A DNA stretch of 32,000 nucleotides from Halogeometricum borinquense DSM 11551 (GCF_000172995.2 NC_014729.1:630001-662000); one strand, 5' to 3'. Counted from the stretch's first letter, positions 6,663 to 24,284 are shown. Notes: generated by a model not told the origin, from the letters alone. Program-made: numbers and translations.

Positions 6663-6670
6663 CTCACACG

Positions 6671-7078: not shown

Positions 7079-7154
7079 TAATGTAAGAATTTGTCTTGAA
7101 AAGACGTGACACGCTCACCTAAGATACGGCGGGTTTTTCTGGACGAACTGAATC

Positions 7155-8096: not shown

Positions 8097-8136
8097 ATAT
8101 GCTGAACTGTAGTTGGTGGTCGTGTGCGTGCGTCGA

Positions 8137-8541: not shown

Positions 8542-8898
8542 CTTTCGTATTAGATATAGAAGGTCTGTCAAATATAGTTCAGGCAATCCGGGTCTGATTA
8601 GGTCACACTCGGCTAACCACCCCGGAACGAGAGGAGCGAAACGGTTCCGCAGGCGGCAAATGGCGAAAACGCCTACAGTATCTGTAATTCCCAGTACATC
8701 CATAAATGAATCCACTCTCCTTGGAGAGCACAGAGCGCGGATGTTATCTCGTCATCTCGGTCCGTGTATGGAAATATGGCCGAATGGTCGCAGTCGAGAC
8801 AGACGCGTGAGAACAATTGTGCGACACCATCGATCGATAATAATCATTCAGGCCTCCCTCGGCTCACTGAAATCCTATGAAAATCAACCACCGGACGA

Positions 8899-9111
8899 CT
8901 ATATAGTCAAGATGCTACACAACTCCCTGAAATTGGATTTCTTGGGTTTATTTGGTCTGAAACGGGACCAGAATGGTCGGCCTCGGCACTCGAACCAGTA
9001 ACTATCACCGACTACCGTCCCCCGTGGGGGTGGAAGCGGATGACCGCTACACCCAGACAGGAGTGAAATCACACCGAGCGGGAGGGCTTTAATCAGAGAC
9101 CGCCTATCCAT
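8899..9111 (-). CDS. short lipoprotein-like ORF (possibly a truncated gene)
   Basis: From Met22 of ORF 8899..9174: MDRRSLIKALPLGVISLLSGCSG..., an RR signal with a lipobox (LSGC). Only about 45 residues follow, and their composition is unconvincing (basic, Pro/Arg-rich). Confidence 0.3.
   Translation of the reverse strand: MDRRSLIKALPLGVISLLSGCSGHPLPPPRGTVVGDSYWFECRGRPFWSRFRPNKPKKSNFRELCSILTI
8979..8991 (+). repeat. GGCCTCGGCACTC, left copy of a 13-bp direct repeat (candidate attL core)
   Basis: Exact copy of 24272..24284. See findings for the chance expectation. Confidence 0.3.
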
Positions 9112-9190
9112 ACGAAAAAATGTGAAATGAGTGTCATAACGTTGTTGGTAGCCTGCATCGCATCGCAGACACACTCTTGTGGGGGTCGTC

Positions 9191-9226
9191 AGCTTCTGAC
9201 GGAGATGAATCTGACGTCAGAAAGCT
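9191..9226. repeat. imperfect inverted repeat (agcttctgacg / cgtcagaaagct, 13-nt loop) downstream of the lipoprotein operon
   Basis: Read directly: 11-bp arms with a one-base bulge. It contains the perfect palindrome ctgacgtcag. Located 74 nt beyond the stop of 9300..9719 on the minus strand. No T-run follows. Confidence 0.3.
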
Positions 9227-9299
9227 TCTCGTCCGGCAGGCACCCAACGTGCTTGAGTGAGGGGATACGGAACCGGTGAATCCATGCCTAAGACCTCAA

Positions 9300-9719
9300 T
9301 CAAGCGGCAGTTTCCGTGAACTCGATACGGTCCTCATAGACGGTTATATCCAGACCCACAGCACCATCCGGTTGGCCTTGGTTGCCCGGTACATCCCACA
9401 CATACTCGTCAGAATTGTCATCTTTCAGCTCCACAGATATGAGATGTTCCCCAGGCTCCTCAATGACCCCTTCAATAGTAGTGACCCGGTTGGCAAGCTC
9501 TTCGTCATAATCGACAGAAACCGACTCGGAATAGACCTCTGCATCTGATGCGACGTTCGTAATGGTTAGTTGGACTGTGATTGGGCTCGTCGTTTGATTC
9601 ACCAGTAAAACCGTCGGAGTTCTGGAATTATTAGATAGACATCCAGCAAGAACAGGGATGGAAAGAGCACCAATCACATGAATCACACGCCGCCTCCGAA
9701 TTTTATCACGTCTTCCCAT
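9300..9719 (-). CDS. lipoprotein, hypothetical
   Basis: MGRRDKIRRRRVIHVIGALSIPVLAGC: arginine-rich n-region, hydrophobic core and a lipobox (LAGC). The mature part is rich in beta-strand-type sequence. Last gene of a three-gene minus-strand cluster. Confidence 0.65.
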   Translation of the reverse strand: MGRRDKIRRRRVIHVIGALSIPVLAGCLSNNSRTPTVLLVNQTTSPITVQLTITNVASDAEVYSESVSVDYDEELANRVTTIEGVIEEPGEHLISVELKDDNSDEYVWDVPGNQGQPDGAVGLDITVYEDRIEFTETAA

Positions 9720-9755
9720 AGGTAAAAATGTGTGGGGAATTATATATACCTTTTG

Positions 9756-10376
9756 TCAAAACAGGTCTGAATGATTGTCCATATAGTCTCGAATAGGCGT
9801 GATGTCACAATCCGAGAATCGGTTTTTTCGAGTCCTGAAGGTATGGTCATTCCCGTTACAGGTCGTGGAACTGGGGTTACCCATTACAGTAAACTCTGCG
9901 ACGCCCCAGTTTTCGTGATCGGAGTGTCTTGCAGAGTACATGTGTCCCATCTCATGAGTGTCAGCCGCAGCTATGAGAGTCCCAGTTGTAGCAATGGCGA
10001 CTGGCTGAGGATTATTGCCAGCAGCGATTTCGTCACTGTCGCCATCAGTGGGTGGTATAGGTGCCATCCCTGTGACGTTGTCATTCCATTTTTCATCATG
10101 GATGACCAGTATGGAATCATATTTACTCGAGAAGGAATAGTTGTTGTGGACATACTCAGCAGCCTCTTGACGGGCCGTACCTGCATCGTCACTCGAAATT
10201 GAGACTGGTTTATCCCAATGAGTGTGAGTTCTCAATGAATAGTCTCCGCTGGAATCCTCAATGTCTGTCTCCCATGCGTTGGAAATGGCGTCGGCCCGGT
10301 TGTTCAACAGTGACGAACTCTCGTTCTGCTTGAACTGATGGGTTGGCAGGATCGCCGCGACAGTGGAAATACTCAT
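9756..10376 (-). CDS. metzincin-like zinc metalloprotease (HExxHxxxxxH), no signal peptide
   Basis: HEMGHMYSARH has the H-E-x-x-H-x5-H spacing of metzincins, with a candidate Met-turn FTVMG 12 residues later. The start ATG (10376-10374) overlaps the upstream stop (TAATG). Confidence 0.6.
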   Translation of the reverse strand: MSISTVAAILPTHQFKQNESSSLLNNRADAISNAWETDIEDSSGDYSLRTHTHWDKPVSISSDDAGTARQEAAEYVHNNYSFSSKYDSILVIHDEKWNDNVTGMAPIPPTDGDSDEIAAGNNPQPVAIATTGTLIAAADTHEMGHMYSARHSDHENWGVAEFTVMGNPSSTTCNGNDHTFRTRKNRFSDCDITPIRDYMDNHSDLF

Positions 10377-11128
10377 TATTCTACCCTCACGAGGTATGCA
10401 TTTCTGTTCTTGTGAATTTCAACAGACATTTTGTCGAATCTTGCACTTCCTTCAACTTGTGACGTAGATTTCTGGACCTTATTGATTAGCCGTGTCGATT
10501 CCTCAGTGATTGGTATGAGAATTCCTTCAGAACTGGAGTAGACCTTACAGTTCCCATGGTAGCTGATTTCGTAATTGACGGTTGCCTCCCCAGAAGGTAC
10601 CTTATGGGTGACTTCCAGTTGTTCAGTGGAGTGTGGCGTTAGTTCAACAGACCGGTTACCAATCGAGACAGTTTTCTTCCCACCACCTACAACTGAAATC
10701 GGGACTGGAGGTGACCGGCTAATTGACGCGCCGGAACCGGCCGCGCTGCCGTCAACGTACGTTCTCGATAGGCTGACCTCATCACTCTTTGTGGTCTTGA
10801 TTCCATCAGGCGTCGACACGATCGTCGATTGAGGTGAGAGATCAGCTGCCAGATTCGACTCAGTAGTGTACACATGAGCCTTATTTTTCGACTTAGGGAA
10901 TGTGATGTGATGCGAGGGCCAAGCGATACTTTGACTCACCACCTGCTCCTTCGCGGTCACACCCACACTTTCCACAGACACCTCAACGAGTGGTGCCTGA
11001 GACTTGCTAATCTTCGTCTCTGCGGCCTTCGCTTCTACGCTGCCTAGCAATCCTACCGCTGCTATACCTGAGGTGCCAGCGAGGACTTGCCTTCGGCTAA
11101 ATTTTGTCTTTCTATTTTCCATCCGCAT
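10376..11128 (-). CDS. Tat-secreted protein, hypothetical
   Basis: Twin-arginine motif FSRRQVLAGTSGIAAVGLLGSVEAKA, followed by a Ser/Thr/Val-rich beta-type sequence. The stop overlaps the start of the metalloprotease-like gene by 1 nt. Confidence 0.7.
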   Translation of the reverse strand: MRMENRKTKFSRRQVLAGTSGIAAVGLLGSVEAKAAETKISKSQAPLVEVSVESVGVTAKEQVVSQSIAWPSHHITFPKSKNKAHVYTTESNLAADLSPQSTIVSTPDGIKTTKSDEVSLSRTYVDGSAAGSGASISRSPPVPISVVGGGKKTVSIGNRSVELTPHSTEQLEVTHKVPSGEATVNYEISYHGNCKVYSSSEGILIPITEESTRLINKVQKSTSQVEGSARFDKMSVEIHKNRNAYLVRVE

Positions 11129-11147
11129 CTCAAAACATGGTGCCTGG

Positions 11148-11157
11148 TTTATATTTC
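11148..11157 (-). promoter_or_regulatory. TATA-like box (minus strand GAAATATAAA) for the 11128 operon
   Basis: TATAAA lies about 20-25 nt upstream of ATG 11128, and about 27 nt from the second in-frame ATG at 11122. This spacing fits a leaderless haloarchaeal transcript. Confidence 0.3.
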
Positions 11158-11342
11158 TTTTTGATTGTCATTATCTCGTTAGTGGCCCCGACTAGGACCC
11201 ACCATTCAACTGGTTGTCACGTTCGTTGGTCGTCATAGTATTGCGCAAATTGTATGAACTGCTCGTGGATACTCGCGTGGCTTCCTACCCATCGATCCTG
11301 GAAGTCATCAATGTCTTAATAGTTTGAAACCACATCCCGATG

Positions 11343-12143
11343 GGCACTGTCTAGTTAGTGACCTCCTCAACCGGCGTTCGTCCGTTGAGCGCTTGATGCA
11401 GTCTCTAAAAATCATAGTATTGCGCAAATTGTATGATCCACCCGTGGACGCTTCCGTGACTGCCCACCCACGAATTATGGAAGCGCTCAACTCGCATTTT
11501 AAGGATATGAAACCACTTTTCGATGAGGTTTCGCTCGACGTAGTCAAGCAGACCGCTCAATCCTAATCGAGAGAGGGCAGTCTGATGGCCGTAGCCATCA
11601 ACCAGAAACACAGTATCTGAGAGATCATGTTTCTCGGAAAGTCGATGGAGAAACGCAGCAGCTGGATCGGTACCATGTCGTCCAAACAATTCGACATCGA
11701 GAATCAGCTTCGTCTCGATGTCTATTGCAGCGTACAACCAAGACCATTCGCCATTGATTTTGACAGCGGTCTCGTCGACCGCAACCCGCTTCGGCTTCGC
11801 CTCAGGCGGGGTGTGACCGCTGTCAGCCAGTCGATGTACCCACTGCCAAAAAGCTTGATGAGAGCGTTCAACGCCGAGTATTCGAAGAATTTCTTTTGTC
11901 TCTCTAAGTGAACACCCGGTCGCGTGGAGCTGGACGGCGAACACCCTGACGGGCGTCCTCAGAACGCTTCGCGTTCTGATGGGCTGCACGAGAGCTCTGC
12001 TCTCGTGAACGTCGCCGTCCGCTCACGCTCCCAAGTTTCTTCTAAATCCGTCGCAAAGCATTCGCTGAGCAGGTCTGCGAGCATCTTCCCAAACTCACTC
12101 AACGACCTGCTCGTTCCTCAAACTGGCTTAACTAGACAGTGCC
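11343..12143 (-). mobile_element. IS6-family insertion sequence, 801 bp, with 15/16-bp terminal inverted repeats
   Basis: IRL ggcactgtctagttag (11343-11358). IRR ttaactagacagtgcc (12128-12143). Flanked by TCCCGATG (11335-11342) and TCTCGATG (12144-12151), an 8-bp target duplication with one mismatch. Encodes an IS6-type DDE transposase (DETAVKINGEWSWLYAAID). Confidence 0.85.
11351..12084 (-). pseudogene. IS6-family transposase, apparently disrupted (N-terminal frameshift + premature TAG)
   Basis: ATG 12084 opens MLADLLSECFATDLEETWERERT..., which is in a different frame from the main ORF (11405..11989, GTG start). In-frame TAG at 11405-11407 is followed by RLHQALNGRTPVEEVTN and the stop at 11351-11353 inside the IR, which is the usual IS6 C-terminus. 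Confidence 0.65.
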
Positions 12144-12650
12144 TCTCGATGAGATTTCGCTCAACGTAGTCAAGCTGATCGCTCTATTCTAATCGATAGA
12201 TATTAGTCTGGTAGTCGTAGCCATCAACAAGAAACACAGAGTCAGAGAACTCCTGTTCTTCCGAGAGTCGATGGAGAAATGCAGCAACCGAATCAGTATC
12301 ATGTCGTCCAAACAATTCGACGTCGAGAATCAGCTTTTTCAGTGTCTACTGTATTCGCTACCCAAGGCCACCCGACATGATTTTGACAGCGGTCTCGTTA
12401 GCAACAACCCGCTTTGGCTTCGCCTCAGGCAGTTGTGATCGCCGCCAGCGCCAATGTACCTAGCGCCAAACTGCCTGATGAGAGCGTTCAACTCCGAGGG
12501 GGCGGACAATTTGTATTGTTTCTCTAACTGAAATTCGGTCGCGTGAAACTGGACGGCAAACGTCCAAACGAATGTTGTTGCCCACCCCACACTCCAGATC
12601 TTCTAATAAACCCGCCGCAAAGCACTGCCTGAGAGATCTGCGAGCGCCAT
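12144..12650 (-). pseudogene. transposase remnant of the older IS6 copy
   Basis: Homologous to the inner copy, but with multiple stops and indels. The only open piece is 12339..12590, ...TFAVQFHATEF... versus VRVFAVQLHATGC. Its 3' part continues at 11199-11342 (...DRWVGSHASIHEQFIQFAQYYDDQRT). Confidence 0.65.
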
Positions 12651-12739
12651 GATCAATTTAATCAATGACCTACTCATTTCTCAAACTGGCTAACTAGACA
12701 GTGCCTGAAATTTCAAAATATTTGGGGCCTGACATCCCC

Positions 12740-13573
12740 CTATGTGGTGATCCGACAAATAATATCGCCAGAGATTGTACATTTGAGAACAAGTTCTCGT
12801 GAATAGGAACAACAGGATTCAACAATTTTTTCAGACACTTCAACTGCTTCACCAGATCTCGGGCATTGAGGAACGAATGGCCGCAGAGAGATTAGAAGCT
12901 GCCCCTTTTGGTCCTTAGGAATATCATTCCACATGGGGAGAAGCCTCTCAAGAACTGAAGCTCCAGTTAGATCTGCGAGCATCGCCGATTCAGAGATCCA
13001 GTGTGCTATGACTGTGTCTCCAGTGGTGACATACACGGTCCCCCCAGTGTTGGAAACCTGATATTCCCCTTCAACGATTGGATATAGCTTCCTTAGAAGT
13101 TCACTGGACAACTCGTTCGTATTCGAAAGGGTATCGCGCCACAATTGCTCTGCCTCCGCGGTCAAACACAGGTCAGCAGAATCACTACAAGGCTCAACGA
13201 CATCATGCTCCGTTAAAAGGTCTTCAAAACTCGCAGATGGAGAGCCCATAGTTCCACCACTTCTCGCAGTCGAGTCATCGGATACGATAGCTCCACTGTG
13301 GAAGCGCCTGAGAAATGATGTTGGGAGATATTTCTTCGTGAGTCCAGGGGTTTTGGGGACTAAATATCCTTTCTGCCAGACCCTGGCCGCACCGAGAACC
13401 GCAAACAAGATCGCAATCAACGGACCGACAAACCAAAGTACAGCCGAGATTGTGATCGTAATGGAAATATTGAGTAGAGTACAGGGAGTACAGCGGTTTT
13501 TCCCAGTATATTCGGGGTCTTTTATTGATTCGAGGTGTTCATTCAAGGTATAGAAACATATGGTAGGAAACAT
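12740..13573 (-). CDS. membrane protein, hypothetical (N-terminal CxxC + two TM helices, Cys-rich C-terminus)
   Basis: 277-aa ORF. NRCTPCTLLNISITITISAVLWFVGPLIAILFAVLGAA forms a hydrophobic hairpin. The soluble domain ends in CPRSG...CCSYS...C...C. No family recognised. Confidence 0.6.
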   Translation of the reverse strand: MFPTICFYTLNEHLESIKDPEYTGKNRCTPCTLLNISITITISAVLWFVGPLIAILFAVLGAARVWQKGYLVPKTPGLTKKYLPTSFLRRFHSGAIVSDDSTARSGGTMGSPSASFEDLLTEHDVVEPCSDSADLCLTAEAEQLWRDTLSNTNELSSELLRKLYPIVEGEYQVSNTGGTVYVTTGDTVIAHWISESAMLADLTGASVLERLLPMWNDIPKDQKGQLLISLRPFVPQCPRSGEAVEVSEKIVESCCSYSRELVLKCTISGDIICRITT

Positions 13574-13698
13574 AAAAAACTACTGTTCAAAGTGTGTTTT
13601 TCCATCCACAGTTTCACGTTTGACTTAGAATCGTGAGCAAGCCCTCAGCTACCGATGTTGACCACTAAGACAGCACGCATCCAGTAGAACAGTCGCTC

Positions 13699-13951
13699 GT
13701 GGTCGTAGAATTGGGGTAGAAATGGACCACTGTGACTCACTCCGCTCGTCACAAGCACCCACTCACCCCGTTCGCGGGAACGGCTCAGATTCGAACTTCC
13801 CTCGCTATCGCTCGGGCGTTCGAATCTTCACCGGGTGAAATCTCCACCACCTCTCGGACCACTCGCTGTCGCTCGTGGTCTGTGAGAGGTGGGGAGAATA
13901 TGGGCCGACTCAGTGTTGATATTGGGAAGAGACGCTCTTCCCACTAGTTTT
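13699..13951 (+). other. cluster of consecutive inverted repeats / stem-loops in a 610-bp gene-free stretch (possible structured RNA or protein-binding array)
   Basis: Read directly. 13699-13704/13725-13730 (6 bp). 13731-13736/13748-13753 (6 bp). cccgTTCGcggg at 13767-13778. 13787-13796/13818-13827 (perfect 10 bp, AGATTCGAAC/GTTCGAATCT). Palindrome TTCACCgGGTGAA at 13827-13839. Composite hairpin 13841-13897 with about 20 bp. GGGAAGAGacgCTCTTCCC at 13924-13942, followed by TTTT at 13948-13951. Confidence 0.5.
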
Positions 13952-13999
13952 CACGGATCCAGATGGAAACTAGCTCCTCGGCAAATCGCCAGATGGGAA

Positions 14000-14018
14000 G
14001 AGGATTTCAACAGAGCCG
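14000..14018 (+). repeat. GAGGATTTCAACAGAGCCG, copy 1 of an exact 19-bp direct repeat
   Basis: Identical to 14164..14182. Spacing is 164 bp. Confidence 0.8.
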
Positions 14019-14163
14019 AATTGGCATAAGAACTCATCCGTGGTTCCAACTGTTGAATGCCAGTTATATCTGCGGCAAAATCACTGCTGACGCCCCCATA
14101 CCGACTAACTCACAGCTGCTTAATAGGCGCTCTATATTCAGCACACAGTTTGTATCAACTACT

Positions 14164-14182
14164 GAGGATTTCAACAGAGCCG
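14164..14182 (+). repeat. GAGGATTTCAACAGAGCCG, copy 2 of an exact 19-bp direct repeat
   Basis: Identical to 14000..14018. It ends one base before the stop codon (14184-14186) of the minus-strand 79-aa ORF. Confidence 0.8.
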
Positions 14183-14183
14183 T

Positions 14184-14423
14184 TCACCACTGTTCGAACA
14201 ATTCGTCGATATCGTTCAACCGAGGACGACTCAGGATTCGTTCGTAGCCTTCGAGTGCCATTTCGTAGTGGACGTGAGGGAAGTAATCGAAGATCTCGTA
14301 CTGGGTCTTCCCGTCGTCCTGTGTGACGAATAATCGGTCTTCAGGACTAGTGTTGTTGTAGAGTGTTTCTGCCTCTATGTATGCGGCTTTGAGCTGTTGG
14401 TACTCCCTTTCGTGAATGGGCAT
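14184..14423 (-). CDS. small acidic hypothetical protein (79 aa)
   Basis: ORF with plausible acidic composition (MPIHEREYQQLKAAYIEAETLY...DELFEQW). Its first 49 nt overlap the end of the start-less ORF 14375..14785. Confidence 0.5.
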   Translation of the reverse strand: MPIHEREYQQLKAAYIEAETLYNNTSPEDRLFVTQDDGKTQYEIFDYFPHVHYEMALEGYERILSRPRLNDIDELFEQW

Positions 14424-14793
14424 ATCTGCGTCTGAAATCGGTGGTTCTCACCTCTCGTCCTCGTTTCGTCGGGTTTGTAGTTTTGACTCCTTTCAAGCTC
14501 GGGTTCGTAGAACGGGGTTAGCTCTTTGTCAAGTAGTTCTCCGCCGTCAGGATAGGGTTCATCCGTTTCAATATCGGTTCTGTACGCGATTGCCTTCTGA
14601 AGTTGTTCTTGGGAGAAGTAGCCCCATTCCCAACGGTCGTAGGTATTCGGAGATTTAACTCGGCCAAAGTACAGACCATCTTCTTTGATATCGTATGCCT
14701 CCCACCACCAATCCGGTAGTAAGAGAACTGCCCATGCCGCTAACGGCTCCTTATACTCATCTTCGTCTTCATATTCTGAAATAAATCATTCAT
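14375..14793 (-). pseudogene. 136-codon coding-like frame with no in-frame ATG/GTG/TTG; probable 5'-frameshifted gene
   Basis: The minus-strand frame is open from 14785 to TAG 14377-14375. It reads FISEYEDEDEYKEPLAAWAVLLLPDWWWEAYDIKEDGLYFGRVKSPNTYDRWEWGYFSQEQLQKAIAYRTDIETDEPYPDGGELLDKELTPFYEPELERSQNYKPDE... I checked every codon and found no canonical start. The nearest ATG (14793-14791, MNDLFQN...) is in another frame and stops after 17 codons. Confidence 0.4.
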
Positions 14794-14907
14794 ATCTTAC
14801 ATTATTCAGAAGCAGGCAATCGAGTAGTAGCAAACGAGACACCACATTTCAATTGATGTCAAACATCATATTGAAGTAGATTCGGTATTCTTATTCTTTT
14901 GGTTTGA

Positions 14908-15252
14908 ATGACTGAGGACCATCATCCCCTGAGAGGGGTAATCTTGTACTGGACCCTCGGCCAACAGCCTCAACAGAAGTTGAAGGACCGAATGTTTTCC
15001 GGCAACTACAGCCACTACTCAACTAAAGACGGTGAATTCACCGACACAAGTAGGTTGAAAACAGGAGAGTACCTGATTATCGAAATCAGCGAAGAACAGT
15101 TAGAGGCGTCCAATGAACCGGTAGAATCCGAATGCCCTGAACTCGAAACCCTCCCAGGAAGCGAGCTCGAACAGTTCTGTCTCTACCGAGAAGAAGACGG
15201 ATACTGTACAACACTCGGGGAAACCTGCGTCCTCTTAGAACCCGATGACTGA
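14908..15252 (+). CDS. hypothetical acidic protein (114 aa) with C-terminal Cys cluster
   Basis: ORF preceded by an AT-rich intergenic region. The stop overlaps the next gene by 8 nt (15245-15252), suggesting an operon. No family recognised. Confidence 0.55.
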   Translation: MTEDHHPLRGVILYWTLGQQPQQKLKDRMFSGNYSHYSTKDGEFTDTSRLKTGEYLIIEISEEQLEASNEPVESECPELETLPGSELEQFCLYREEDGYCTTLGETCVLLEPDD

Positions 15253-15658: not shown

Positions 15659-15661
15659 GGA

Positions 15662-16111: not shown

Positions 16112-17817
16112 AGGAAGTCACCTAATTTGGTTTGAAGCGGTTCCCGTTCCAAGATCTCCACTTGATCAAACCGGGAGTCAATCGAGGTATTAGAGGTGGT
16201 TACAATCATCTGCTTGTCCAAAGATAGAATATACTCTAGGGCTGCATCTCTGTTCTCTTCCTCCTGAAGGTTCGAAAACGGCTCATCTAAAACAATAGTA
16301 TCCCACTCGATAACACCGTTTTCAGTTGCAAAACGACTCAGGGTACAAGCAAAGGATATATTCAGTAGGTGAAATTCCGAGCCACTCAGATTACCTCCTC
16401 TATCATACTCGCGCAGGTTGTTCCTACCAGGGAATTGAATTCGACCCTCCTCGGAAATACTGATTCCAAGCTGCAGGTTTGAATTCATCTGGTTGTACGC
16501 TTCTTCCCAAGCCTCACTGAACTCCTGAATACCAGCCTCAAAGCTTTGTTCAGTCAGTTCTTCGACCATCTCAGAGGCATGGTTATGTGCTTCAGAATAT
16601 GCCTTAGACTTCCGGTTGATCTCCTCAACCTTCTCCTCTAGACTTTGTCGGTCAGATTTGAGTTCGTCCAAACTGCTAGAAATAGATTCTAACTCTTCTT
16701 GGACGTGGTCCTGAATCTGCTGGATATTGTGGTCATAGTTGTCCAGCCTTCGTTTGGTGAATCCGTCTAACTCTTCGAGCTCGGGTTTTTCCTCTTTTAG
16801 TTCGCCAATCTGGTTAGAGACTTCGTCCCGCTGGTCTTGCAGTTCTTCAATCTCTTCTTTCAGCTCATCAAGCAGATCATCGGACTCCTCGATTTTCTGG
16901 CTAAGACGCTGCTTCAATCCTTCCAGAGAGTGGTTCCGACCACAGTAAGGACAGTAACCGCGTTGAATCCTGTTCTTTGCTTTCTCAGTTGTAATCCTGC
17001 GGTCACAGGTCGGACAGACAAAATCATTGACAGCCTCAGCAATAATATCGTTAACCTCGGACTCGTAGTTCTCCTGTTTCCTCTTCTTCCGATGCAGTTT
17101 TCGAAGACGCTTACGCAAACCCTCCTTTTCCTTGAATAACTCATCAAGCCTGTTCTCCAGTTCTTCATCTCTCCTCAACTGTTGGCTGAGCTTAGCCAGT
17201 TCACCTGATTCAATCTGTGACTCAAGTCGGTCGTACTTCTCTTTCTGTGACTCTAAATCACTGACCTGTCGGTCAAGATCGGACTTCTCCTCAGAGAGCC
17301 GTCTTTTCGTATCCTTCGTCTCTACAACGAGTTCGCTTAGTTGTTCCTCGGCATCTTCCAGCCGGGAAATCCTCTGCTCCAGCTCTCGGTTGGTAACGCT
17401 CCGAATCAGTTTGGTTCTTTGACCTCGACTCAACTCGTCCAAAGGCATCTTACCAATATGAGAGTGGACAAAAAGAGATTTCAGCAGAGTAGTATCCCCG
17501 AGGTCCTCGGAGAAGGCTTCAGAAGCATTCGAGCCATCCAGTGTTTCATCTTCTCGTTCGTACTCTGATTCTGGGTTGCCTCGGAAGAATCGGCTGTCGT
17601 TCGTGAATTCGAGTTCAACCTCGTTTTGTCGACCGGTCGCTAAATCGATAGTGTGCTTTGCTCCAAGAAGATTGTAGAGAATAGCGTTGAAAGTCAGTGT
17701 TTTCCCGGTTCGGCTTCCTCCCCTGAGCAGATGAGAATCACTGCTTACTGATTCGATTTCCATGCCTCGGTGCTCGCCGCTAGCGAACTCTTCGATGTTC
17801 AGGGAGTCAATCTTCAT
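16108..17817 (-). CDS. SMC/Rad50-like ABC ATPase with a mid-coiled-coil 4-Cys zinc hook
   Basis: Walker A RGGSRTGKT (aa 32-40, nt 17698-17721). About 230 aa of heptad-rich, charged sequence lie on each side of CPTC-x17-CPYC (aa 268-292, nt 16942-17016). ABC signature LSGSE (aa 477-481). Walker B/D-loop TIVLDEPFSNL (aa 507-517). Confidence 0.8.
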   Translation of the reverse strand: MKIDSLNIEEFASGEHRGMEIESVSSDSHLLRGGSRTGKTLTFNAILYNLLGAKHTIDLATGRQNEVELEFTNDSRFFRGNPESEYEREDETLDGSNASEAFSEDLGDTTLLKSLFVHSHIGKMPLDELSRGQRTKLIRSVTNRELEQRISRLEDAEEQLSELVVETKDTKRRLSEEKSDLDRQVSDLESQKEKYDRLESQIESGELAKLSQQLRRDEELENRLDELFKEKEGLRKRLRKLHRKKRKQENYESEVNDIIAEAVNDFVCPTCDRRITTEKAKNRIQRGYCPYCGRNHSLEGLKQRLSQKIEESDDLLDELKEEIEELQDQRDEVSNQIGELKEEKPELEELDGFTKRRLDNYDHNIQQIQDHVQEELESISSSLDELKSDRQSLEEKVEEINRKSKAYSEAHNHASEMVEELTEQSFEAGIQEFSEAWEEAYNQMNSNLQLGISISEEGRIQFPGRNNLREYDRGGNLSGSEFHLLNISFACTLSRFATENGVIEWDTIVLDEPFSNLQEEENRDAALEYILSLDKQMIVTTSNTSIDSRFDQVEILEREPLQTKLGDFL

Positions 17818-18322
17818 CGGTTATGTCGTACAATTTTACTGAGCTTTTAACTACCTGTCGGAGATTCCGATATTCCCGATAACTGAATAAGTAAATCACG
17901 ACCAGCGATCCAATCAACGAAAAAACGGCATACGTCAAGCCATACAAATCATTCACGGCAAATGGCAGAGAAACCCCGATCAACAGACCAGAAAGAACCG
18001 TTACCAAGTGGCGGTGTGCTTTGCCATCCATTCGATCTATACGGTCCTGAGTATCCTGATCAGCATCCCAGTAGAACTCATCATCTCCCGTTCGTCCATC
18101 GATGCGGTTGAAACTCTCCTCAATAACATCACCCGCGAAAAACTCCATCAAACCATCATTGAAAACCACGCTAAGGAAAACCAGGAAAACAGAAGGAACA
18201 CCAGCAGCAAAAAGGTGAACAGGCTTGCTCAATTCGAAAGACGACAAGTAGAGAAAACCAGCGGCATATATGAATAGAAACAGAGCACCCCAACTCTGCT
18301 GAATCTGCTTACCAAGCTGCAT
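17807..18322 (-). CDS. four-TM membrane protein with acidic central loop
   Basis: 171 aa. Hydrophobic helices WGALFLFIYAAGFLYLSSF, LFAAGVPSVFLVFLSVVF, LVTVLSGLLIGVSLPFAV and TYAVFSLIGSLVVIYLFSY. Loop: DGRTGDDEFYWDADQDTQDRIDRMDG. The stop overlaps the ATPase start by 11 nt. Confidence 0.7.
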   Translation of the reverse strand: MQLGKQIQQSWGALFLFIYAAGFLYLSSFELSKPVHLFAAGVPSVFLVFLSVVFNDGLMEFFAGDVIEESFNRIDGRTGDDEFYWDADQDTQDRIDRMDGKAHRHLVTVLSGLLIGVSLPFAVNDLYGLTYAVFSLIGSLVVIYLFSYREYRNLRQVVKSSVKLYDITDED

Positions 18323-18401
18323 AAAACAACTATCAACATCAAAGAGTTAGATAACTTTCCCTCCACCGGAGTGAATCTGACACTTCGACAGTTAGTATAA
18401 T

Positions 18402-21400
18402 TCAGTCCCAAGCGTGGAAGTCGCTTTCAATCTCCCCAGTGAATTCTCCATCTTCATTAAGTGAATAGACACCTCTGATCTGGCTCTTACCGAACTCATT
18501 GCCGCTAATAGTTCCTGTAGATATTCTTTTCTCGCCTTGCACAAGCCATACTATGGACAAACCTGTTTGAGTTAGTTCCTGTAGGAGGTTGCTATCTCCT
18601 CCGATCATTGTCAATGAATTCACCCTGTCGAGCAGTCCATCTGACTCAGAAACGTCGGCAATCCGAACTGGGTTTGTTGACTGGTTCATGAACATCTTTT
18701 CACCAACAACCCATTCCATTTCAAGTAGTTCCGAGAGATATGGTGATGGCACGAACATTCCATACGATTCGTCTATCGAGCAGTCATACTCGGCTTCCCA
18801 ATGGAGGTCGATTATTGTTTTTTCGGTGTCAACAGGAGATCCTCTGATAGCTTGACCGGCGTCCTCTAACCAATCATCAACAACTGGGTGCCATGGGTAC
18901 TCCCCTCTGAAGACCTGAGTCAGAGTGGCTAACCGAACTAACCCACTTTGAATACTATCGCTCGAAACCCAGTTCTGTCTAACCCATGCCAGCAATTCTG
19001 ATTTGTCTTCTGCATCTACGATAACGGAATCTATCCAGAAGACAATCTTCCGCTCGGCATCAGACTCCTGACTCTCTTTTTCTCCCCAATTGTATGTTCC
19101 ATGCAGCGGTAACCATGATTCCTCATCGATAGATATTTCCAACAAATTGGGTATCTCAGGAAACTCTTGGTCATCTGAGACCCACCCTTCAGTTCCTACA
19201 TCACCAATACGAAGACTGTAATTCGGGACTTGATCAATAGACAGATCAGATTCTGGTTCAGGATTTAGTACAGAGGGGTCTATGTTTCTATCCCAGTTTG
19301 TCCAGGGACCACTATAGGGGGTATCCGTTATTGAGTCGGTGAACTCGCAATCATCCGTTATCCAAGCGACGAACTCGTAGTAAGCAATCCACTGGTACTT
19401 TTTACTGAATTTCTCGGGTTTCCGAGTCCCCCTTCCTGCTCGCAACCTCCAGTTCACGCACTGGTCGAATTCACCAAACGAATCTGGATGCCAACCAAGG
19501 TCAAACACTCTTTTCGTAATCCATCTAAGAGCCTCGTCACCAGAGATGTCATAACCGTGTACATGAGTGCTGTCACTATTCGTTCCAACAACGTACCGAG
19601 CAAAATCACTGAAACCGCCTCCCTCAAAGTCAGATCCCACTAAACCAATCCAAAACTTGGATTCAAGATCTGTATCTGCATCTTCCAACCGTTCTGTTAC
19701 CTGATCTCGTAACTCATCCGGACTTGGAATACCGATACTGAACGAGCTGTCATACGGCGGTCTAATCTTATCAAGGTCTACACTGTAGGTATCAGACTTG
19801 TCGTTTGCCAGTTCAATGATTCCCCTAGCATAGTCTCTTGTCAGGATATGTGGCGTTGGATCACCATCCTCAAACTCCAGTTCAAATACAGTGTCAGCAA
19901 TGTCTGTTACCGAGTTCTCCGTTCTGTTTCGGAGAACCCCACCGTAGGCTGCTGCATAAACTCTCTCCAAAATGTATGGATCGTTCACACCTCGGAAGCG
20001 TTCAATCAAGTCAATATAGATCTCAAGGTCGGAACCTACGACATTGACTATCGCCTTGGTAGATCTATCCCGTAGAAATCTGTTGGGGCAGCAAAGGAAC
20101 CAAGATAAGGTAACCGAGATCAACCGCTTCAATTCGATTGACTCAATTGGATTGTTCTCCAGAGAGAAACCCCAGTTAACCAATCGAAATACCTCGGAAG
20201 TATCTTCACCGAATTCTTCGTGCAGGAACCTAGACCAATCGTGGTCTCTTCCACGAACACCATATTCCATCAGGATGCCGTGGAGATATTCTGTGTTTAA
20301 TGGATGCTCTGAACTCGTTGCTAACGTAAGGAGAACCCGCCAGAGTTCATATAGTTCATCTAATTCCCCGATTTCGCTCCAAAGATAATCCGTGACTTCT
20401 TGACTAATATCGCCATTCGAATCGATCAGTGTTTGGGGATCTCTCCAACCCAGACTCTTAATGAACGGAATCAAAATCGCCTCTGAATCAATGAAATCGA
20501 ATATTTCGACGTTATGTTGCTCAGGAAGATGGATCGATAGCGCTTGAATCAGTCCAGAATACCGGAATGGGTCGTCAAATACCTCCTGCAACTCATCACT
20601 ATCGGATAGAGCATCCCTGAAATCACCGTCCACGTAGAGGTCGAGATACTGCTGTGCCAACATATGGTCTGCAAACTTATCATACGAGAATCTAACCGCT
20701 TCTCCTGCATCCTCATCAAACTGGACAACCTCTGAAATCACACCCTCACTCAAGATATGCCTGTATAGACTCTCTGGGTAGCGTCTTCCTGGTAGAAAGT
20801 CATTGACGATCTGCTTTGCTTTATCCTTGGGCAAGCGTTTGGTGCCGCCTCCCTCTTCAGCCATTTCACGAGCCAGCGCTTCAACAGCAGTTCTTACCTT
20901 GTTATCGCTCGGATCGTACTGTAGCTCCCGCCAGAGCCGTTCGTGGACACCATCAATATATCCTTCAAATATCTGGCTAATGCCTTCAGGACCGTGAGAA
21001 ACCCGGCTCTTTCCCTGTCTCTCCAAGTTCTCACAGAACAGCTTCAAAAACAACGGGACCTGAAACTCTTGTTTCAGAACCGGGATCGAGGAATGGTCTA
21101 TCCCGTGTGCGTCGAAGAACTTTCGAACAGCTTCGTACTCAACTTCTCTGAAGCCATAGTGTCTGGTTTCGATGAGGTCGTCCTCAGTACTTTCGAATAC
21201 TCGGTTTTCATAGCCGGTGCGGCAACTAACACAGATCCCGATATGTGGGTAGTTCTCTAACTTCCGTAGCACTCCTGGAAGCTGTCTCGACCACATCCGT
21301 GGATCAGAACTCTCATTCAAAGCGTCGATCATGATGAGAGATCGAACACCACGTGATTCTCCGAGAGAATCTAGGGCACCTAAGAACTCTTCAGTACCAC

Positions 21401-22601
21401 AAGTCAATCCAAACCGTTCGATAATCTGCGTCCAAATATTCCTGTTATAGAAGTTCTCGCCGAGCAACAATACAGTCGGGTAACCTTCCTCAATTCGGTC
21501 TTTAGCGACATTGCATAACAGGTGTGTTTTCCCCATCCCTGCTTCCCCAAGCAACTTCAAAGCAGGGTCCTGAGCTACCTGCAAATCCTTCGATTGAACA
21601 TATCTTTGAAAGCTGTATACTTCACTCTGGACTTGACGGAAACGATTCAGGGTATGTTTTTCTGTTGTACCTACTGAATCCTGTTCTTCCTCTGCCTGTT
21701 CTTTGAGAGTTCGAAGCTCCGGTTCCAGTGAACTGATCGCTTGCTCTGCCTGTTCAAGAGTATCAACTAACTCTTGAATAGGGATGTCTGTATCCACCTG
21801 TTCAATATCTTGGAGAAGGACTGGTATCTGTTCTATTGCATCGTGTAACTCATGAAAAGATTCCTCATCAGCCTGCTTCAACACCTCAATACTTCTCTGG
21901 GTGAACAAGCTACTTGCTTCCTCACTGAGAGCATCTAAACGATCTTTAACGTCCCCAACGAAAGCTGGGGTTCTCCCTAATGGCTCAAAAATATCCGATG
22001 CTTTGATATCAACGTGAAGCTCTGGTGTGTACCGCTCACTAGCATTAGAAATCGTTTCTTCTAGCTCTGACCGTAATTTGGATCCAGTTAGTTGGTTTGT
22101 GTTGAACCAGAAGTAGAGCCGACCTTTGTGCTTCTCCTTACTTAGGAGTTCTAATAGTCGGGATTGACCCCAGAAAACGAACTCCACATCCATGTCACGT
22201 TCATCCGCCCACCTTTCCCATTTCTCCTTCCGGTCATTGTACTTCTCAAGTGCGGTCTTAACCCCTTTACGCGGGCTGTGAGGTCGGTCGCATGGGACAC
22301 ATACAAAATACTTGGTTAGTCCTGGATAGGTGTCTAGTGCTTTTTTAACAGATCTGTCGACTTGTGATAGGCTGCTATTATCGATTCTATCTACGTATTT
22401 TGCTTGCCAACCCCATACATCTCCTTCCGGGGACTCCCATTTGCATTCGATTCCTGCGTCTGGGTCGCCAATACGGGTATATTTCCATGAACCAGATATG
22501 TCTTCAAATTGGTGTGCAATCTGGCTACAGAGTTCCTCGAAGCCCTTCCTGCGGGAAGTTTCAACCGGTCTAATATTGTTAAAGTTGATAGAAATGCTCA
22601 T
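18402..22601 (-). CDS. 1399-aa Mrr-like PD-(D/E)xK nuclease + NACHT/STAND-like P-loop NTPase + large C-terminal region
   Basis: N-terminus: GFEELCSQIA...IGDPDAGIECKW...WGWQAKY (helix Glu, Asp, Q-x-K). Walker A LLGEAGMGKTHLL (aa 350-362, nt 21525-21548). Walker B SLIMIDALNES (aa 421-431, nt 21312-21338), of the hhhhD[GA]LxE NACHT type. Alpha-helical repeats follow, then a Trp-rich C-terminal domain of about 450 aa (KYQWIAYYEF). Confidence 0.85.
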   Translation of the reverse strand: MSISINFNNIRPVETSRRKGFEELCSQIAHQFEDISGSWKYTRIGDPDAGIECKWESPEGDVWGWQAKYVDRIDNSSLSQVDRSVKKALDTYPGLTKYFVCVPCDRPHSPRKGVKTALEKYNDRKEKWERWADERDMDVEFVFWGQSRLLELLSKEKHKGRLYFWFNTNQLTGSKLRSELEETISNASERYTPELHVDIKASDIFEPLGRTPAFVGDVKDRLDALSEEASSLFTQRSIEVLKQADEESFHELHDAIEQIPVLLQDIEQVDTDIPIQELVDTLEQAEQAISSLEPELRTLKEQAEEEQDSVGTTEKHTLNRFRQVQSEVYSFQRYVQSKDLQVAQDPALKLLGEAGMGKTHLLCNVAKDRIEEGYPTVLLLGENFYNRNIWTQIIERFGLTCGTEEFLGALDSLGESRGVRSLIMIDALNESSDPRMWSRQLPGVLRKLENYPHIGICVSCRTGYENRVFESTEDDLIETRHYGFREVEYEAVRKFFDAHGIDHSSIPVLKQEFQVPLFLKLFCENLERQGKSRVSHGPEGISQIFEGYIDGVHERLWRELQYDPSDNKVRTAVEALAREMAEEGGGTKRLPKDKAKQIVNDFLPGRRYPESLYRHILSEGVISEVVQFDEDAGEAVRFSYDKFADHMLAQQYLDLYVDGDFRDALSDSDELQEVFDDPFRYSGLIQALSIHLPEQHNVEIFDFIDSEAILIPFIKSLGWRDPQTLIDSNGDISQEVTDYLWSEIGELDELYELWRVLLTLATSSEHPLNTEYLHGILMEYGVRGRDHDWSRFLHEEFGEDTSEVFRLVNWGFSLENNPIESIELKRLISVTLSWFLCCPNRFLRDRSTKAIVNVVGSDLEIYIDLIERFRGVNDPYILERVYAAAYGGVLRNRTENSVTDIADTVFELEFEDGDPTPHILTRDYARGIIELANDKSDTYSVDLDKIRPPYDSSFSIGIPSPDELRDQVTERLEDADTDLESKFWIGLVGSDFEGGGFSDFARYVVGTNSDSTHVHGYDISGDEALRWITKRVFDLGWHPDSFGEFDQCVNWRLRAGRGTRKPEKFSKKYQWIAYYEFVAWITDDCEFTDSITDTPYSGPWTNWDRNIDPSVLNPEPESDLSIDQVPNYSLRIGDVGTEGWVSDDQEFPEIPNLLEISIDEESWLPLHGTYNWGEKESQESDAERKIVFWIDSVIVDAEDKSELLAWVRQNWVSSDSIQSGLVRLATLTQVFRGEYPWHPVVDDWLEDAGQAIRGSPVDTEKTIIDLHWEAEYDCSIDESYGMFVPSPYLSELLEMEWVVGEKMFMNQSTNPVRIADVSESDGLLDRVNSLTMIGGDSNLLQELTQTGLSIVWLVQGEKRISTGTISGNEFGKSQIRGVYSLNEDGEFTGEIESDFHAWD

Positions 22602-22660
22602 GGACGTAATCCAACTCGTGCTTGTGTTTCAAGTAAGTGTCTGGTTCTGAGACAGGTTTG

Positions 22661-22670
22661 AGTATAATAG
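22661..22670 (-). promoter_or_regulatory. TATA-like element (minus strand CTATTATACT) upstream of the 1399-aa gene
   Basis: The only AT-rich box in the 181-bp gap between the integrase stop and ATG 22601. It lies 60-69 nt upstream of the ATG. Confidence 0.25.
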
Positions 22671-22782
22671 TTTGGTCGACTGAAGGCTTGGAATCAGGGT
22701 AGAATAATTTGAACCGGTCTGACTCGCAGGTTTGAGCCAGGTTCGAAACAGGGGTGCGACTAAGTGGTGTATTCCGGTTCTT

Positions 22783-23715
22783 TTAGAGGTGAAGTGGTTT
22801 GATGGCTTGTAGGTATTCTTGTTGTGCTTGGTTACGGTCGATGCGTGTGTAGATGTCTATGGTTTCTGACTCGGAGTCGCCTCGGATGTATTGGAGGATG
22901 TGGTCGGGCATTCCTTGGTTTCTCATGAGGGTGGTGAAGACGGTTCGGAAGGTGTGTGGTGTGAATTTTTTGTGGAACCGTGTTTCGCCTTCTTCCATGA
23001 CCCCGGTTTTAACGGCTGCCTCCCTGACTTTCCGCCGGATTCTTTCCCGTGTTAGCTGGTTTCCGGTTCGACTGGAGGCAAACAGGTATTCCGAGGTGTT
23101 CTGGTCGATGAACTGGAGGCGTTGAATCATTCTCACTGTTTCATCGTCAACGGGTATGACGGTGGTTTTGCCTCCTTTCCGGTTGGTAAGCCGAATAAAA
23201 CCGTCTTCGAGCAGTAGGTCTTCGCGTGTGATGGTGAGTGCTTCTGTGACTCGGCACCCGGTTTTAGCGAGTACTACTGCCACGGTCTTGTCCCGCGGAT
23301 CATCGATAGCGTGAACAATCTTCTCAGCGTTTTCCCATGTGGCGCAGTCAGGTCGGTCGTGGATCTGCTTAGGAACTTCTTCGAGTACGACCGCGGCAGG
23401 GTTCCCGGTGATGTCTTCGTATCGGGGTCGTTTCATTGCCCAAGCGTAGAAGCTGCTGAGTGATTCGAGGTAGCGGCGTTTGGTGTTTTGTGCCAAGTCT
23501 CGTTCTACGAGTATTCTCAGGTACTGTTCAACGTGGTGTACTTCGACGTCTTCCGGGTCAAGTTCGGGGAAGTGTTCGTGGAAGAACCGTTGAAGTGTCC
23601 GGCTGTACTCATTGATTGTCCGATGGCTTCTACCGGTCGTGGTCTTGCTTGTAAGGAACTCGTTGATCGAGTCGTGCTTGTTCTCGAACCGGGTTTTGTA
23701 CCAGTCATCACCCAT
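22783..23715 (-). CDS. tyrosine recombinase / phage-type integrase (XerC/D-like)
   Basis: 310 aa. N-terminal SAM-like core-binding part (INEYSRTLQRFF...). Catalytic region with ...GCRVTEAL..., HKKFTPHTFRTVFTTLM (HxxR) and IDIYTR (nucleophile Tyr). Confidence 0.9.
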   Translation of the reverse strand: MGDDWYKTRFENKHDSINEFLTSKTTTGRSHRTINEYSRTLQRFFHEHFPELDPEDVEVHHVEQYLRILVERDLAQNTKRRYLESLSSFYAWAMKRPRYEDITGNPAAVVLEEVPKQIHDRPDCATWENAEKIVHAIDDPRDKTVAVVLAKTGCRVTEALTITREDLLLEDGFIRLTNRKGGKTTVIPVDDETVRMIQRLQFIDQNTSEYLFASSRTGNQLTRERIRRKVREAAVKTGVMEEGETRFHKKFTPHTFRTVFTTLMRNQGMPDHILQYIRGDSESETIDIYTRIDRNQAQQEYLQAIKPLHL

Positions 23716-24206
23716 TACTTGTCACCTCCTGAGTTGTGTTTCCAGCCTTTACCACGCCGGAACACCACCCTTGCTTCGTCTCCGAGTTTGTAGAGACCGG
23801 TCTCCAAGTCAAGACGAACCCTTCTCCGAAACTCCGGCTGCTTCAACAACTCTTCGAGAAGTTGGTCGAACGGAGTGTAGTTCTCAGACAGAATCTTCTC
23901 AACCAGTTCCTCATCGATCGTTTGAGTCTGGGAGGTTACCCTGTTGGATGACTGGCTTTCAAGCTGCTGCTCAAGCTCCTCAACCCTCTGCTGTAACTGT
24001 TCGACTTTTCGTTTGTCACCGAGTTTCAACTGACCTTGTTCTCGGAGGTACCGAGCCTCCTGAATCAAGTCTTGGAGGTACTGGATCATCGAGGTACCGC
24101 GCTCTTCGGCCTCTGCTTTCCACGTTTCTTTGTGGGTTTCCGGCGGGTAGAGCTTCACCAACGAAGTGTCATCACTGATGCCACTGGACGATTTCCAACC
24201 AGTCAT
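23715..24206 (-). CDS. small RHH-like / coiled-coil protein coupled to the integrase (possible excisionase or regulator)
   Basis: 163 aa. LVKLYPPETHKETWKAEAEERGTSMIQYLQDLIQEA has a strand-helix-helix pattern, followed by the heptad region VEQLQQRVEELEQQLES. The stop overlaps the integrase ATG (TAATG at 23713-23717). A paralogous fragment is present at 5150-5290. Confidence 0.6.
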   Translation of the reverse strand: MTGWKSSSGISDDTSLVKLYPPETHKETWKAEAEERGTSMIQYLQDLIQEARYLREQGQLKLGDKRKVEQLQQRVEELEQQLESQSSNRVTSQTQTIDEELVEKILSENYTPFDQLLEELLKQPEFRRRVRLDLETGLYKLGDEARVVFRRGKGWKHNSGGDK

Positions 24207-24242
24207 TTAAAGATCAATCCTCCAAGTAAACGTATGTAAACT

Positions 24243-24253
24243 TATTCTTATAA
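24243..24253 (-). promoter_or_regulatory. TTATAAGAATA box upstream of the RHH-like/integrase module
   Basis: TATA-like 11-mer 37-47 nt upstream of ATG 24206. The same 11-mer is retained at 5145-5155 in front of the decayed copy. Confidence 0.4.
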
Positions 24254-24271
24254 GTCTAGTACTGTATTGAA

Positions 24272-24284
24272 GGCCTCGGCACTC
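24272..24284 (+). repeat. GGCCTCGGCACTC, right copy of the 13-bp direct repeat (candidate attR core)
   Basis: Exact copy of 8979..8991. It lies exactly at the AT-rich to GC-rich transition, beside the integrase module. Confidence 0.3.

Follow-up and report, generated by a model that had tools for sequence, protein, structure and literature searches.

A probable integrative island with antiviral defence genes at the 3' end of the sR-tMet small RNA gene of Halogeometricum borinquense

Introduction

What an AT-rich island with its own integrase is inserted into, when no tRNA gene lies at either edge, is the question raised by a stretch of 32,000 nucleotides from Halogeometricum borinquense DSM 11551 (NC_014729.1:630001-662000), which we call the window and whose first letter is position 1 of all coordinates below. 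A first-pass annotation, made by a model from the sequence alone, had described within it a horizontally acquired, integrase-bearing island of about 15.7 kb at 8542-24271. Here we report that the AT-rich block is a real, horizontally acquired island with borders at 8992 and 24271, and that it is in all likelihood (a probability of about 0.8) a 15.3-kb integrative genomic island with antiviral defence genes, located in the 3' end of the gene for sR-tMet, a C/D-box small RNA (sRNA). What appears to be new here is the attachment site in an sRNA gene and a slot for defence cargo that is shared across haloarchaea; as a genomic island, the element is ordinary.

Results

Composition and borders of the island

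The G+C content of 8992-24271 is 47.9%, as is that of 8542-24271, compared with 58.9% in the left flank (1-8136) and 60.2% in the right flank (24272-32000). In non-overlapping 500-bp windows, G+C was 0.479 +/- 0.027 inside the block (n = 30) and 0.594 +/- 0.033 outside it (n = 32; Mann-Whitney p = 2e-11). The sliding profile fell from about 0.58-0.64 to about 0.44-0.53 between approximately 8.3 kb and 24.3 kb, and a two-breakpoint maximum-likelihood segmentation, which improved the log-likelihood by 215, set the edges at 8460 and 24270. The G+C content of third codon positions (GC3) was 0.45-0.62 in island genes versus 0.67-0.80 in flank genes. Because the window statistics, the segmentation and GC3 agree, the composition step is real at the coordinates first proposed, and the sharp change at both edges that had been judged by eye is confirmed by the sliding profile and GC3.

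Comparison with other strains of the species located the borders more exactly. The window is 100% identical to contig AOHT01000032.1 of H. borinquense DSM 11551, and the genes that flank the block are ordinary haloarchaeal ones (VOC, GST, HxlR, CMD, DoxX and ion-channel genes on the left; GAF histidine kinase, aIF2-beta-TRAM and deoxyhypusine synthase genes on the right). Homology between the window and the genome RZHH01 stops at 8991 and resumes at 24271, with 98.5-99.6% identity outside these break points and an unrelated segment of 6,662 bp between them; the right-hand break was also found in CP048739.1, JAXCMF01 and SRR26441317. An exact 13-nt direct repeat, GGCCTCGGCACTC, is present at 8979-8991 and 24272-24284, coinciding with the break points; by simple arithmetic, two given points would have a 13-mer in common within about 100 bp with a probability of about 1.5e-4. 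The repeat stands at both boundaries not only in the window but also in RZHH01, where it is extended to 16 nt, and in JAXCMF01. As the breaks in strain homology coincide with the direct repeat, we take the exchangeable unit to be 8992-24271 (15,280 bp), which moves the left edge inward from 8542 and leaves about 8460-8540 as a compositional edge only. A search for internal degenerate copies of the attachment (att) core at two or fewer mismatches found none, and the window has two cores only. The features on which the argument rests are as follows.

8979-8991, no strand assigned: distal (displaced) att core copy; exact repeat at which RZHH01 homology ends (8991), not part of a full sRNA gene
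22783-23715, minus strand: Int, a tyrosine recombinase (XerA/XerC/D-like) of 310 amino acids, PF00589
23715-24206, minus strand: p163, accessory protein of 163 amino acids, its stop codon overlapping the int start codon
24230-24271, no strand assigned: arm of the element that separates the core from the p163 gene, probably the P arm and promoter region
24272-24284, no strand assigned: sRNA-proximal att core copy; exact repeat at which homology with four other strains resumes
24272-24344, minus strand: sR-tMet C/D-box sRNA gene (Rfam RF02163), the integration target

One slot with several occupants

The five H. borinquense genomes hold four occupants of this slot, which are mutually unrelated in sequence.

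DSM 11551 and CP050274.1: the island with Avs2 and an SMC-like module
RZHH01: SMODS and SLATT genes, with other genes
CP048739.1: an N6/N4 methyltransferase, McrBC and a primase/D5-helicase
JAXCMF01 and SRR26441317: an nSTAND NTPase of 1252 amino acids

The observations named beforehand as speaking against an acquired island, namely the same block in all related strains and an even G+C content, were thus not made: the step is real and other strains differ. The strain-variable cargo, the 13-nt repeat and the integrase together support a horizontally acquired, integrase-bearing island outside any tRNA gene. CP050274.1 carries the island of the window with 100.0% identity over 9018-11280 and 12210-24229, while identity in most 500-bp windows of its flanks is 95-98%, dropping to 80-88% in a few that contain small indels. 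Recent horizontal movement is suggested by this comparison, in which the island is undiverged between DSM 11551 and CP050274.1 while the chromosomes have diverged.

The probable target, the sR-tMet gene

The right-hand repeat copy is the last 13 nt of the sR-tMet gene. This gene matches RF02163 with 59.9 bits, against a gathering score of 50, over model positions 1-72 of 72, and the alignment shows a C box (AUGACGA), a C' box (GUGACGA), D and D' boxes (CCGA) and a GGCC/GGCC terminal stem. Read in the RNA sense, the core is GAGUGCCGAGGCC, which takes in the last part of the D guide, the D box (CCGA) and the GGCC of the terminal stem. Nine loci examined for comparison contain exactly one full sRNA gene apiece, their distal copies of the repeat not being genes. 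In Haloferax volcanii, sR-tMet guides the 2'-O-methylation of C34 (Cm34) of elongator tRNA-Met, according to Joardar 2011 as cited in PMC4033218, and by likeness to that species the H. borinquense sRNA is predicted to have the same role. A tRNA target was considered and rejected, as ARAGORN found no tRNA or tmRNA gene in the window; the first-pass claims that neither edge has a tRNA gene and that the target is something other than the usual tRNA 3' end both held, and the target is instead the 3' end of sR-tMet. Because the right-hand repeat is this 3' end, an sRNA gene has for this island the role that tRNA genes have for classical ones.

The literature searched, a single text library, yielded no description of attachment at a C/D-box sRNA gene and no paper that connects such genes with integrases or att sites, an absence that does not prove novelty. 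The targets given in a 2021 review of archaeal tyrosine recombinases are tRNA genes, protein-coding genes and intergenic sites, and the words sRNA and snoRNA do not occur in it. Integrases go unmentioned in two surveys of archaeal C/D-box sRNAs, one of which states that mobile features of these genes 'remain to be discovered'.

The integrase module

The right end of the island has an intact integrase module that reads inward, as annotated, consisting of a full-length Int and p163, both on the minus strand. Int belongs to the tyrosine recombinase family (PF00589, E = 1.2e-24, 87.5 bits against a cut-off of 27.1) and has SAM-like N-terminal domains (PF13495/PF02899); its residues R155, K180, H254, R257 and Y289 do not vary across four homologues. 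The nearest solved structure is that of P. abyssi XerA (4a8e). Int is not a XerA equivalog by NF040815 (XerA_Arch), which it matches with 200.8 bits, under the cut-off of 220, and its gene lies inside a strain-variable island.

The second protein of the module, p163, has no match in Pfam, PHROG or NCBIfam. Its sequence pattern suggests a ribbon-helix-helix N-terminus followed by a coiled coil, and it is probably a recombination helper or directionality factor. In at least seven loci a p163 homologue immediately precedes an Int homologue, namely in the metagenomic loci L161, L177, L173, L216 and L226, JAXCMF01 (40% identity, E = 4e-35) and H. volcanii.

At E <= 1e-60 the Int family comprises at least 286 clusters from many genera, including the chromosome of Haloferax volcanii DS2. 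Searches of IMG/VR with the single protein or with an alignment returned no relatives, and tblastn of Int against 50,697 phage records, a collection in which the presence of SNJ2 is unconfirmed, matched only bacterial phage integrases at 30% identity or less. Viral contigs were also considered as a source of attP, and this was rejected: the 70 matches to GGCCTCGGCACTCAT are all chance matches in bacterial phage contigs, and none extends into sRNA sequence. Separately, the Natrinema salinisoli plasmid NZ_CP084471.1 has a 31-nt string, GAGTGACGAGACCTATGAGTGCCGATTGGCC (L228, about 20712-20742, minus strand), 7.8 kb from its int gene. This string, which was left unscored by Infernal, resembles sR-tMet from the C' box to the 3' end and may be an attP.

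The same site in other haloarchaea and in metagenomes

Metagenome contigs were scanned for the last 19 nt of sR-tMet, which gave at least 120 loci (numbered with L, as are other sequences compared), all oriented in the RNA sense. Among the 120 loci listed, 19 extra copies of the 13-mer were direct and downstream, one was upstream and none was inverted, against an expectation of about 0.006; an extra core was present in 16 of the 97 listed loci with at least 1 kb of downstream sequence. Genes of the Int family were found in 10 of the 120, in every case (10/10) downstream; the sequence searched amounted to 433 kb on the downstream side and 360 kb on the upstream side. The layout of the window (core, 42-bp arm, p163, Int) recurs in L161 and L177 with an Int 85% identical, and the arm 24230-24271 is about 80% conserved in these two and in L117, where Int is 77% identical. 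A minimal element of 3.5 kb is seen in L216, in which Int, a p163-like gene and an ApeA-HEPN gene lie between two cores, and the cargo of L182 is GmrSD.

A further relative was found in the H. volcanii-type contig L234 (9404-18621, SRR11888957), where an exact 13-mer stands 85 bp upstream of a p166-Int pair whose Int is 67% identical to that of the window. These genes are followed by an 853-amino-acid methyltransferase and then by an orthologue of the window's Avs2 (described below), with 65% identity over 1397 residues. The element also has a TraG/TrwB-like gene, and across the core from these genes is a type I restriction-modification operon. No sR-tMet gene was found within 21 kb in L234, in which the far end of the element is beyond reach.

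Some metagenomic loci have another form. L190 has cores at 865, 2086, 4232 and 5143 that separate short, mostly single-gene segments, and L128, L140, L199, L217 and L220 are similar. At what we call class B loci the repeat is extended by ACCGATTTACTGGTAC, and each segment ends with an inverted GGTACCGGTAAATC. These cassette-like arrays have no integrase on the contig.

An older element in tandem

The sequence to the left of the distal core appears to be an older occupant of the same site.

about 5100-8978, no strand assigned: older decayed element, with a relic p163-like/Int fusion and DoxX, CMD, HxlR, GST and VOC genes as cargo
about 5100-5675, plus strand: the relic fusion of a p163-like gene and an Int C-terminus, recognised by nucleotide identity to metagenomic modules

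This older element is present in all five H. borinquense strains. The core together with the 17 nt beyond it (from 8978 downward) agrees at 29 of 30 positions with the L197 arm next to the sRNA; nucleotide identity of the relic is 81% to the Int of L180, L197 and L206 and 86% to the p163-like gene of L216; and the ion-channel gene next to it (4186-5025) directly follows sR-tMet in several other haloarchaea. From the arm match, the relic and the ion-channel synteny, we infer that about 5100-8978 is an earlier, now fixed insertion at sR-tMet that was pushed outward. The 450 AT-rich base pairs at 8542-8991 thus lie outside the exchangeable unit because they are the end of the older element. A degenerate distal core of this element was sought near 5026-5100, where the best match, 6-7 of 13 positions, was not significant.

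Cargo genes and insertion sequences

The remaining features of the island are listed below, from left to right.

9300-11128, minus strand: p250, p206 and p139, secreted-looking cargo proteins (weak signals only)
11233-11342 and 12149-12705, minus strand: older degenerate IS6 copy, recognised by direct-repeat families D1-D7 and alignment, split by the intact copy
11343-12148, minus strand: intact IS6-family element with a 194-amino-acid transposase and 16-nt inverted repeats GGCACTGTCTAGTTAG
12740-13573, minus strand: p277, DUF8054 orphan cargo protein (Pfam PF26236/PF26238, precomputed)
14908-15658, plus strand: p114 and p137, small divergent genes, p137 with a weak winged-helix signal
15662-16111, minus strand: p149, third of three overlapping genes
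16108-17817, minus strand: p569, SMC/LmuB-like ATPase with a coiled coil (partial PADLOC LmuB match)
17807-18322, minus strand: p171, membrane protein, first of the three overlapping genes (15662-18322)
18402-22601, minus strand: Avs2 (AVAST type 2), antiviral STAND NTPase of 1399 amino acids (PADLOC, PDB)

The orphan genes and the defence-like cassette of the first-pass annotation are present, and the latter can be named as Avs2 and an SMC/LmuB-like trio. Avs2 scores 1443 bits with the PADLOC profile PDLC02164 and matches PDLC02162 with E = 5.6e-262 over residues 4-1393 (a profile of 1379 positions), a full-length profile match; it also matches the Avs2 structure 9o4e_A in the PDB with E = 1.4e-136, and its NCBIfam NF041813 score of 934 bits is under the cut-off of 1000. 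Haloarchaeal orthologues of Avs2 other than that of L234 lie in unrelated mobile-element contexts without the core. The haloarchaeal Avs2 clade swaps its N-terminal effectors; forms of about 1345 amino acids annotated as HNH (PF13391) align to only 88% of the query; the N-terminus of the window protein differs and has a D..ExK..QxK pattern that by eye is PD-(D/E)xK nuclease-like.

The trio is a candidate defence module that matches no described system. The match of p569 to PADLOC LmuB (E = 1.5e-24) covers residues 285-547 only, and neither p171 nor p149 matches an LmuA or LmuC profile of PADLOC; because no LmuA or LmuC is detectable, p171-p569-p149 is not Lamassu by definition. The trio also occurs in Halorussus, Haloferax larsenii and Halobacterium (L229, L231, L232, L233), beside a NACHT NTPase and three integrases in Halorussus and among housekeeping genes in Halobacterium. 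As for the other cargo, the winged-helix signal of p137 (Csa3/CARF-associated) reaches only E = 2e-4 to 3e-3, p250 is signal-peptide-like, and p206 has an HEMGH motif with a weak M12 metallopeptidase match (Reprolysin_5, E = 0.0018, under the cut-off); p250, p206 and p139 have no PHROG match.

Both IS6 copies that had been noted are there, but one is intact and the other is degenerate and split by it. The element at 11343-12148 belongs to the IS6 family (transposase NF033587, 181.7 bits against 125), its inverted repeats are 100% complementary, and its 8-bp flanking duplication, TCCCGATG / TCTCGATG, matches at 7 of 8 positions. The older copy has no left end, at 11232/11233. The copy at 11281-12210 is only about 82-95% identical between the window and CP050274.1, while the island around it is 100% identical, which suggests replacement or conversion by another IS6 copy. 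The island had been proposed as a possible mosaic joined at the IS6 copies, its left part looking somewhat richer in G+C. The direction of this difference was right (49.4% versus 47.3%), but at about 2 points it is small, and there is no internal att remnant; the missing left end of the older copy fits the proposal, and a two-part mosaic origin is possible, with no positive support.

Other differences at the locus

Two further polymorphisms were seen in the window outside the island. RZHH01 has a 1.4-kb insertion of IS200/IS605 type (OrfB/TnpB, 404 amino acids; L018 16690-18111), for which window position 1849/1850 is the unoccupied site. The second presence/absence polymorphism is a DUF2334 gene (about 29426-30526) that CP048739.1, JAXCMF01 and SRR26441317 lack, their alignments skipping from 29425 to 30527.

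A scan of species-representative genomes with the histidine kinase (HK) protein returned other genera only, at 61% identity or less, and their synteny was uninformative except in Halarchaeum. In Halarchaeum salinum sR-tMet (L012 9866-9939) immediately precedes the HK homologue, but in H. borinquense its place is downstream of the HK gene; the linkage of sR-tMet to HK is kept and the order differs.

Discussion

The anatomy of the locus points to delivery by the integrase as the most likely route. In the model that we propose, Int, probably aided by p163 from a predicted common transcript, would recombine the 13 nt of a circular element with the last 13 nt of sR-tMet. Since the element brings its own copy of these 13 nt, the sRNA gene stays intact at 24272-24344, and the displaced copy would mark the far junction at 8979-8991. 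The predicted circular junction would read, in the RNA sense, …GATAGTTACTGGTTC-GAGTGCCGAGGCC-TTCAATACAGTAC…, and an element of this kind may still be mobile today. The site would act as a hot spot of accretion, newer elements entering beside the sRNA and older ones (here about 5100-8978) shifting outward. Its cargo is mostly antiviral, and in this island one IS6 element later inserted itself into an older one.

Several observations weigh against this model. The core is short, at just 13 nt, and the crossover point would lie inside or beside it. The fifth catalytic position of Int, usually His or Trp, is D280, and the Int of the Natrinema plasmid is 64.5% identical, yet no exact core lies within 12 kb of it. 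The RZHH01 occupant has neither integrase nor p163, and JAXCMF01 keeps a p163 homologue with an Int stub of the first 59 residues. The comparison with related genomes that had been proposed yielded no empty site: exact-protein look-ups of HK, VOC, aIF2-beta and p206 in the five strains and several read-set assemblies found all slots occupied. No circular junction was found either, so that excision and integration are read from the anatomy. Insertions of IS6 may have altered the element. A further difficulty is seen in CP050274.1, where the tract of full identity ends 26 nt and 42 nt inward of the repeats, there is no distal core, and the 46 bp beside the sRNA (window 24226-24271) are those of the CP048739.1 island end. 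These chimeric ends do not follow from simple core-to-core recombination. The switch to the CP048739.1-type end falls at a CGTT(T)AC string that is shared, and the left junction comes right after GAAAGGCGGAGTGAC, which also occurs at the distal end of the JAXCMF01 island. In addition to the 13-mer, JAXCMF01 has an 11-nt repeat, ACGTTAGTTAT, further in. Junctions at island ends recur at AGT(G/A)AC|G (window 24226-24271 and 8992-9017 against CP050274.1, CP048739.1 and JAXCMF01), and this reflects either a second exchange site or successive occupants that recombined through short homologies.

The same chimeric ends, with their switch at CGTT(T)AC and missing distal core, could be explained if the contents of a defence slot were swapped through conserved flanks by homologous or short-homology recombination, with the integrase a passenger or relic and the 13-mer left by an ancient event. 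Haloarchaea exchange large chromosomal tracts, and two of the occupants are without a complete integrase. Such swapping, however, predicts identical tracts in the flanks, whereas the 100% tract of CP050274.1 ends inside the island and its flanks are about 95-98% identical; moreover, cargo sets without relation to one another share this 13-mer as their end point, metagenomes from many lineages repeatedly show extra cores and Int genes on the 3' side (with one extra core upstream among the listed loci), and the arm beside the core is conserved together with the integrase. We consider this explanation unlikely. Nor do we favour an integrated provirus or plasmid over a non-replicative island, even though an integrase at one end and low G+C would suit one, as would the primase/D5-helicase in the CP048739.1 slot and the TraG/TrwB-like gene of the H. 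volcanii relative. Ten open reading frames of the island have no PHROG match; scans with Pfam, NCBIfam and PADLOC found no capsid, terminase, replication-initiator or partition domains; and the Int family has no relatives in IMG/VR and no halovirus match in the phage records, which makes a provirus or plasmid highly improbable.

The metagenomic arrays of core-separated segments of 0.5-2.9 kb, such as L190 with its four cores, raise another explanation, in which the locus is an integron-like capture platform for short, mostly single-gene cassettes, each ending in an imperfect palindrome plus the 13-mer, that are moved in trans by an integrase, and the island is one large cassette. The class B segments begin with ACCGATTTACTGGTAC and end with the inverted GGTACCGGTAAATC, and among the cargo are GmrSD, a UDG-like protein and an M23 peptidase. 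Against this, no integron-type integrase was found (TIGR02249, 71 bits against 265; NF011946, 28 against 435), the integrase lies inside the mobile elements and is not fixed beside the site, and the window has two cores only. Bacterial elements that are flanked by att sites but lack an integrase are known to arise by accretion followed by deletion, and tandem accretion with subsequent deletion explains the arrays equally well, so that a capture platform of this kind seems to us quite improbable. A broader and still doubtful idea is that the sR-tMet 3' end is a dedicated gene-capture site of the Halobacteria, at which pairs of a XerA-like Int and a p163-type protein stack and exchange modules, including integrase-less cassettes in trans, and for which AGT(G/A)AC|G is a second exchange site. 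If this were true, the locus would be a haloarchaeal counterpart of the integron or defence-cassette array, anchored on the gene of a methylation-guide RNA, and the second site would let cargo be swapped without moving the ends.

Read as an integrative island, the element has several known relatives in arrangement. Islander-type islands combine a tyrosine integrase with the 3' end of a tRNA or tmRNA gene as attB, and regenerate the target gene (PMC4383910). The H. borinquense island shares with them the integrase at one end, the regenerated RNA gene, the displaced 3' fragment as a repeat, tandem accretion and atypical G+C, but its target is a C/D-box guide sRNA gene and not a tRNA or tmRNA gene, and its repeat in H. 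borinquense is only 13 nt. The haloarchaeal modules of SNJ2 type use tRNA 3' ends (tRNA-Met for SNJ2) with 14-bp cores and small accessory proteins (PMC5861418). Here the likeness lies in the haloarchaeal host, an int gene overlapping a co-oriented coiled-coil accessory gene, a core that is an RNA-gene 3' end, integrase subgroups coupled to specific att sites, and varied cargo. The differences are one accessory gene (p163) instead of Orf2 and Orf3, the sRNA target, and an Int that scores as XerA/XerC/D-like. This comparison is one of arrangement, and no haloarchaeal virus was among the tblastn matches listed for the phage records. The bacterial att sites in ssrA and in ffs, the 4.5S RNA gene (PMC12540744), likewise make a small conserved non-coding RNA gene the attB, but they are bacterial and involve a different RNA class, and no archaeal or C/D-box example was found in the literature searched. 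Finally, the defence-island hot spots of E. coli (PMC10121019) resemble this locus as single slots with strain-specific antiviral systems delivered by mobile elements; it differs from them in its archaeal host, its sRNA-gene attB and an SMC-like module outside the Lamassu definition.

On our reading of the locus as an integration site, C/D-box sRNA genes would be a new addition to the chromosomal attachment sites known from archaea, and island finders limited to tRNA and tmRNA genes will miss such elements. Because a related integrase, the 13-mer and an Avs2 orthologue occur in H. volcanii-type sequence, the integrase also on the DS2 chromosome, integration, excision and defence are genetically testable in H. 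volcanii, and the set of Int, p163 and the 13-mer might be put to use as a tool for site-specific insertion in these archaea. Defence islands in haloarchaeal genomes and metagenomes can be sought by a sequence handle, the last 13-19 nt of sR-tMet, and the slot has so far yielded Avs2, SMODS-SLATT, McrBC, nSTAND, GmrSD, ApeA-HEPN and an uncharacterised SMC-like module.

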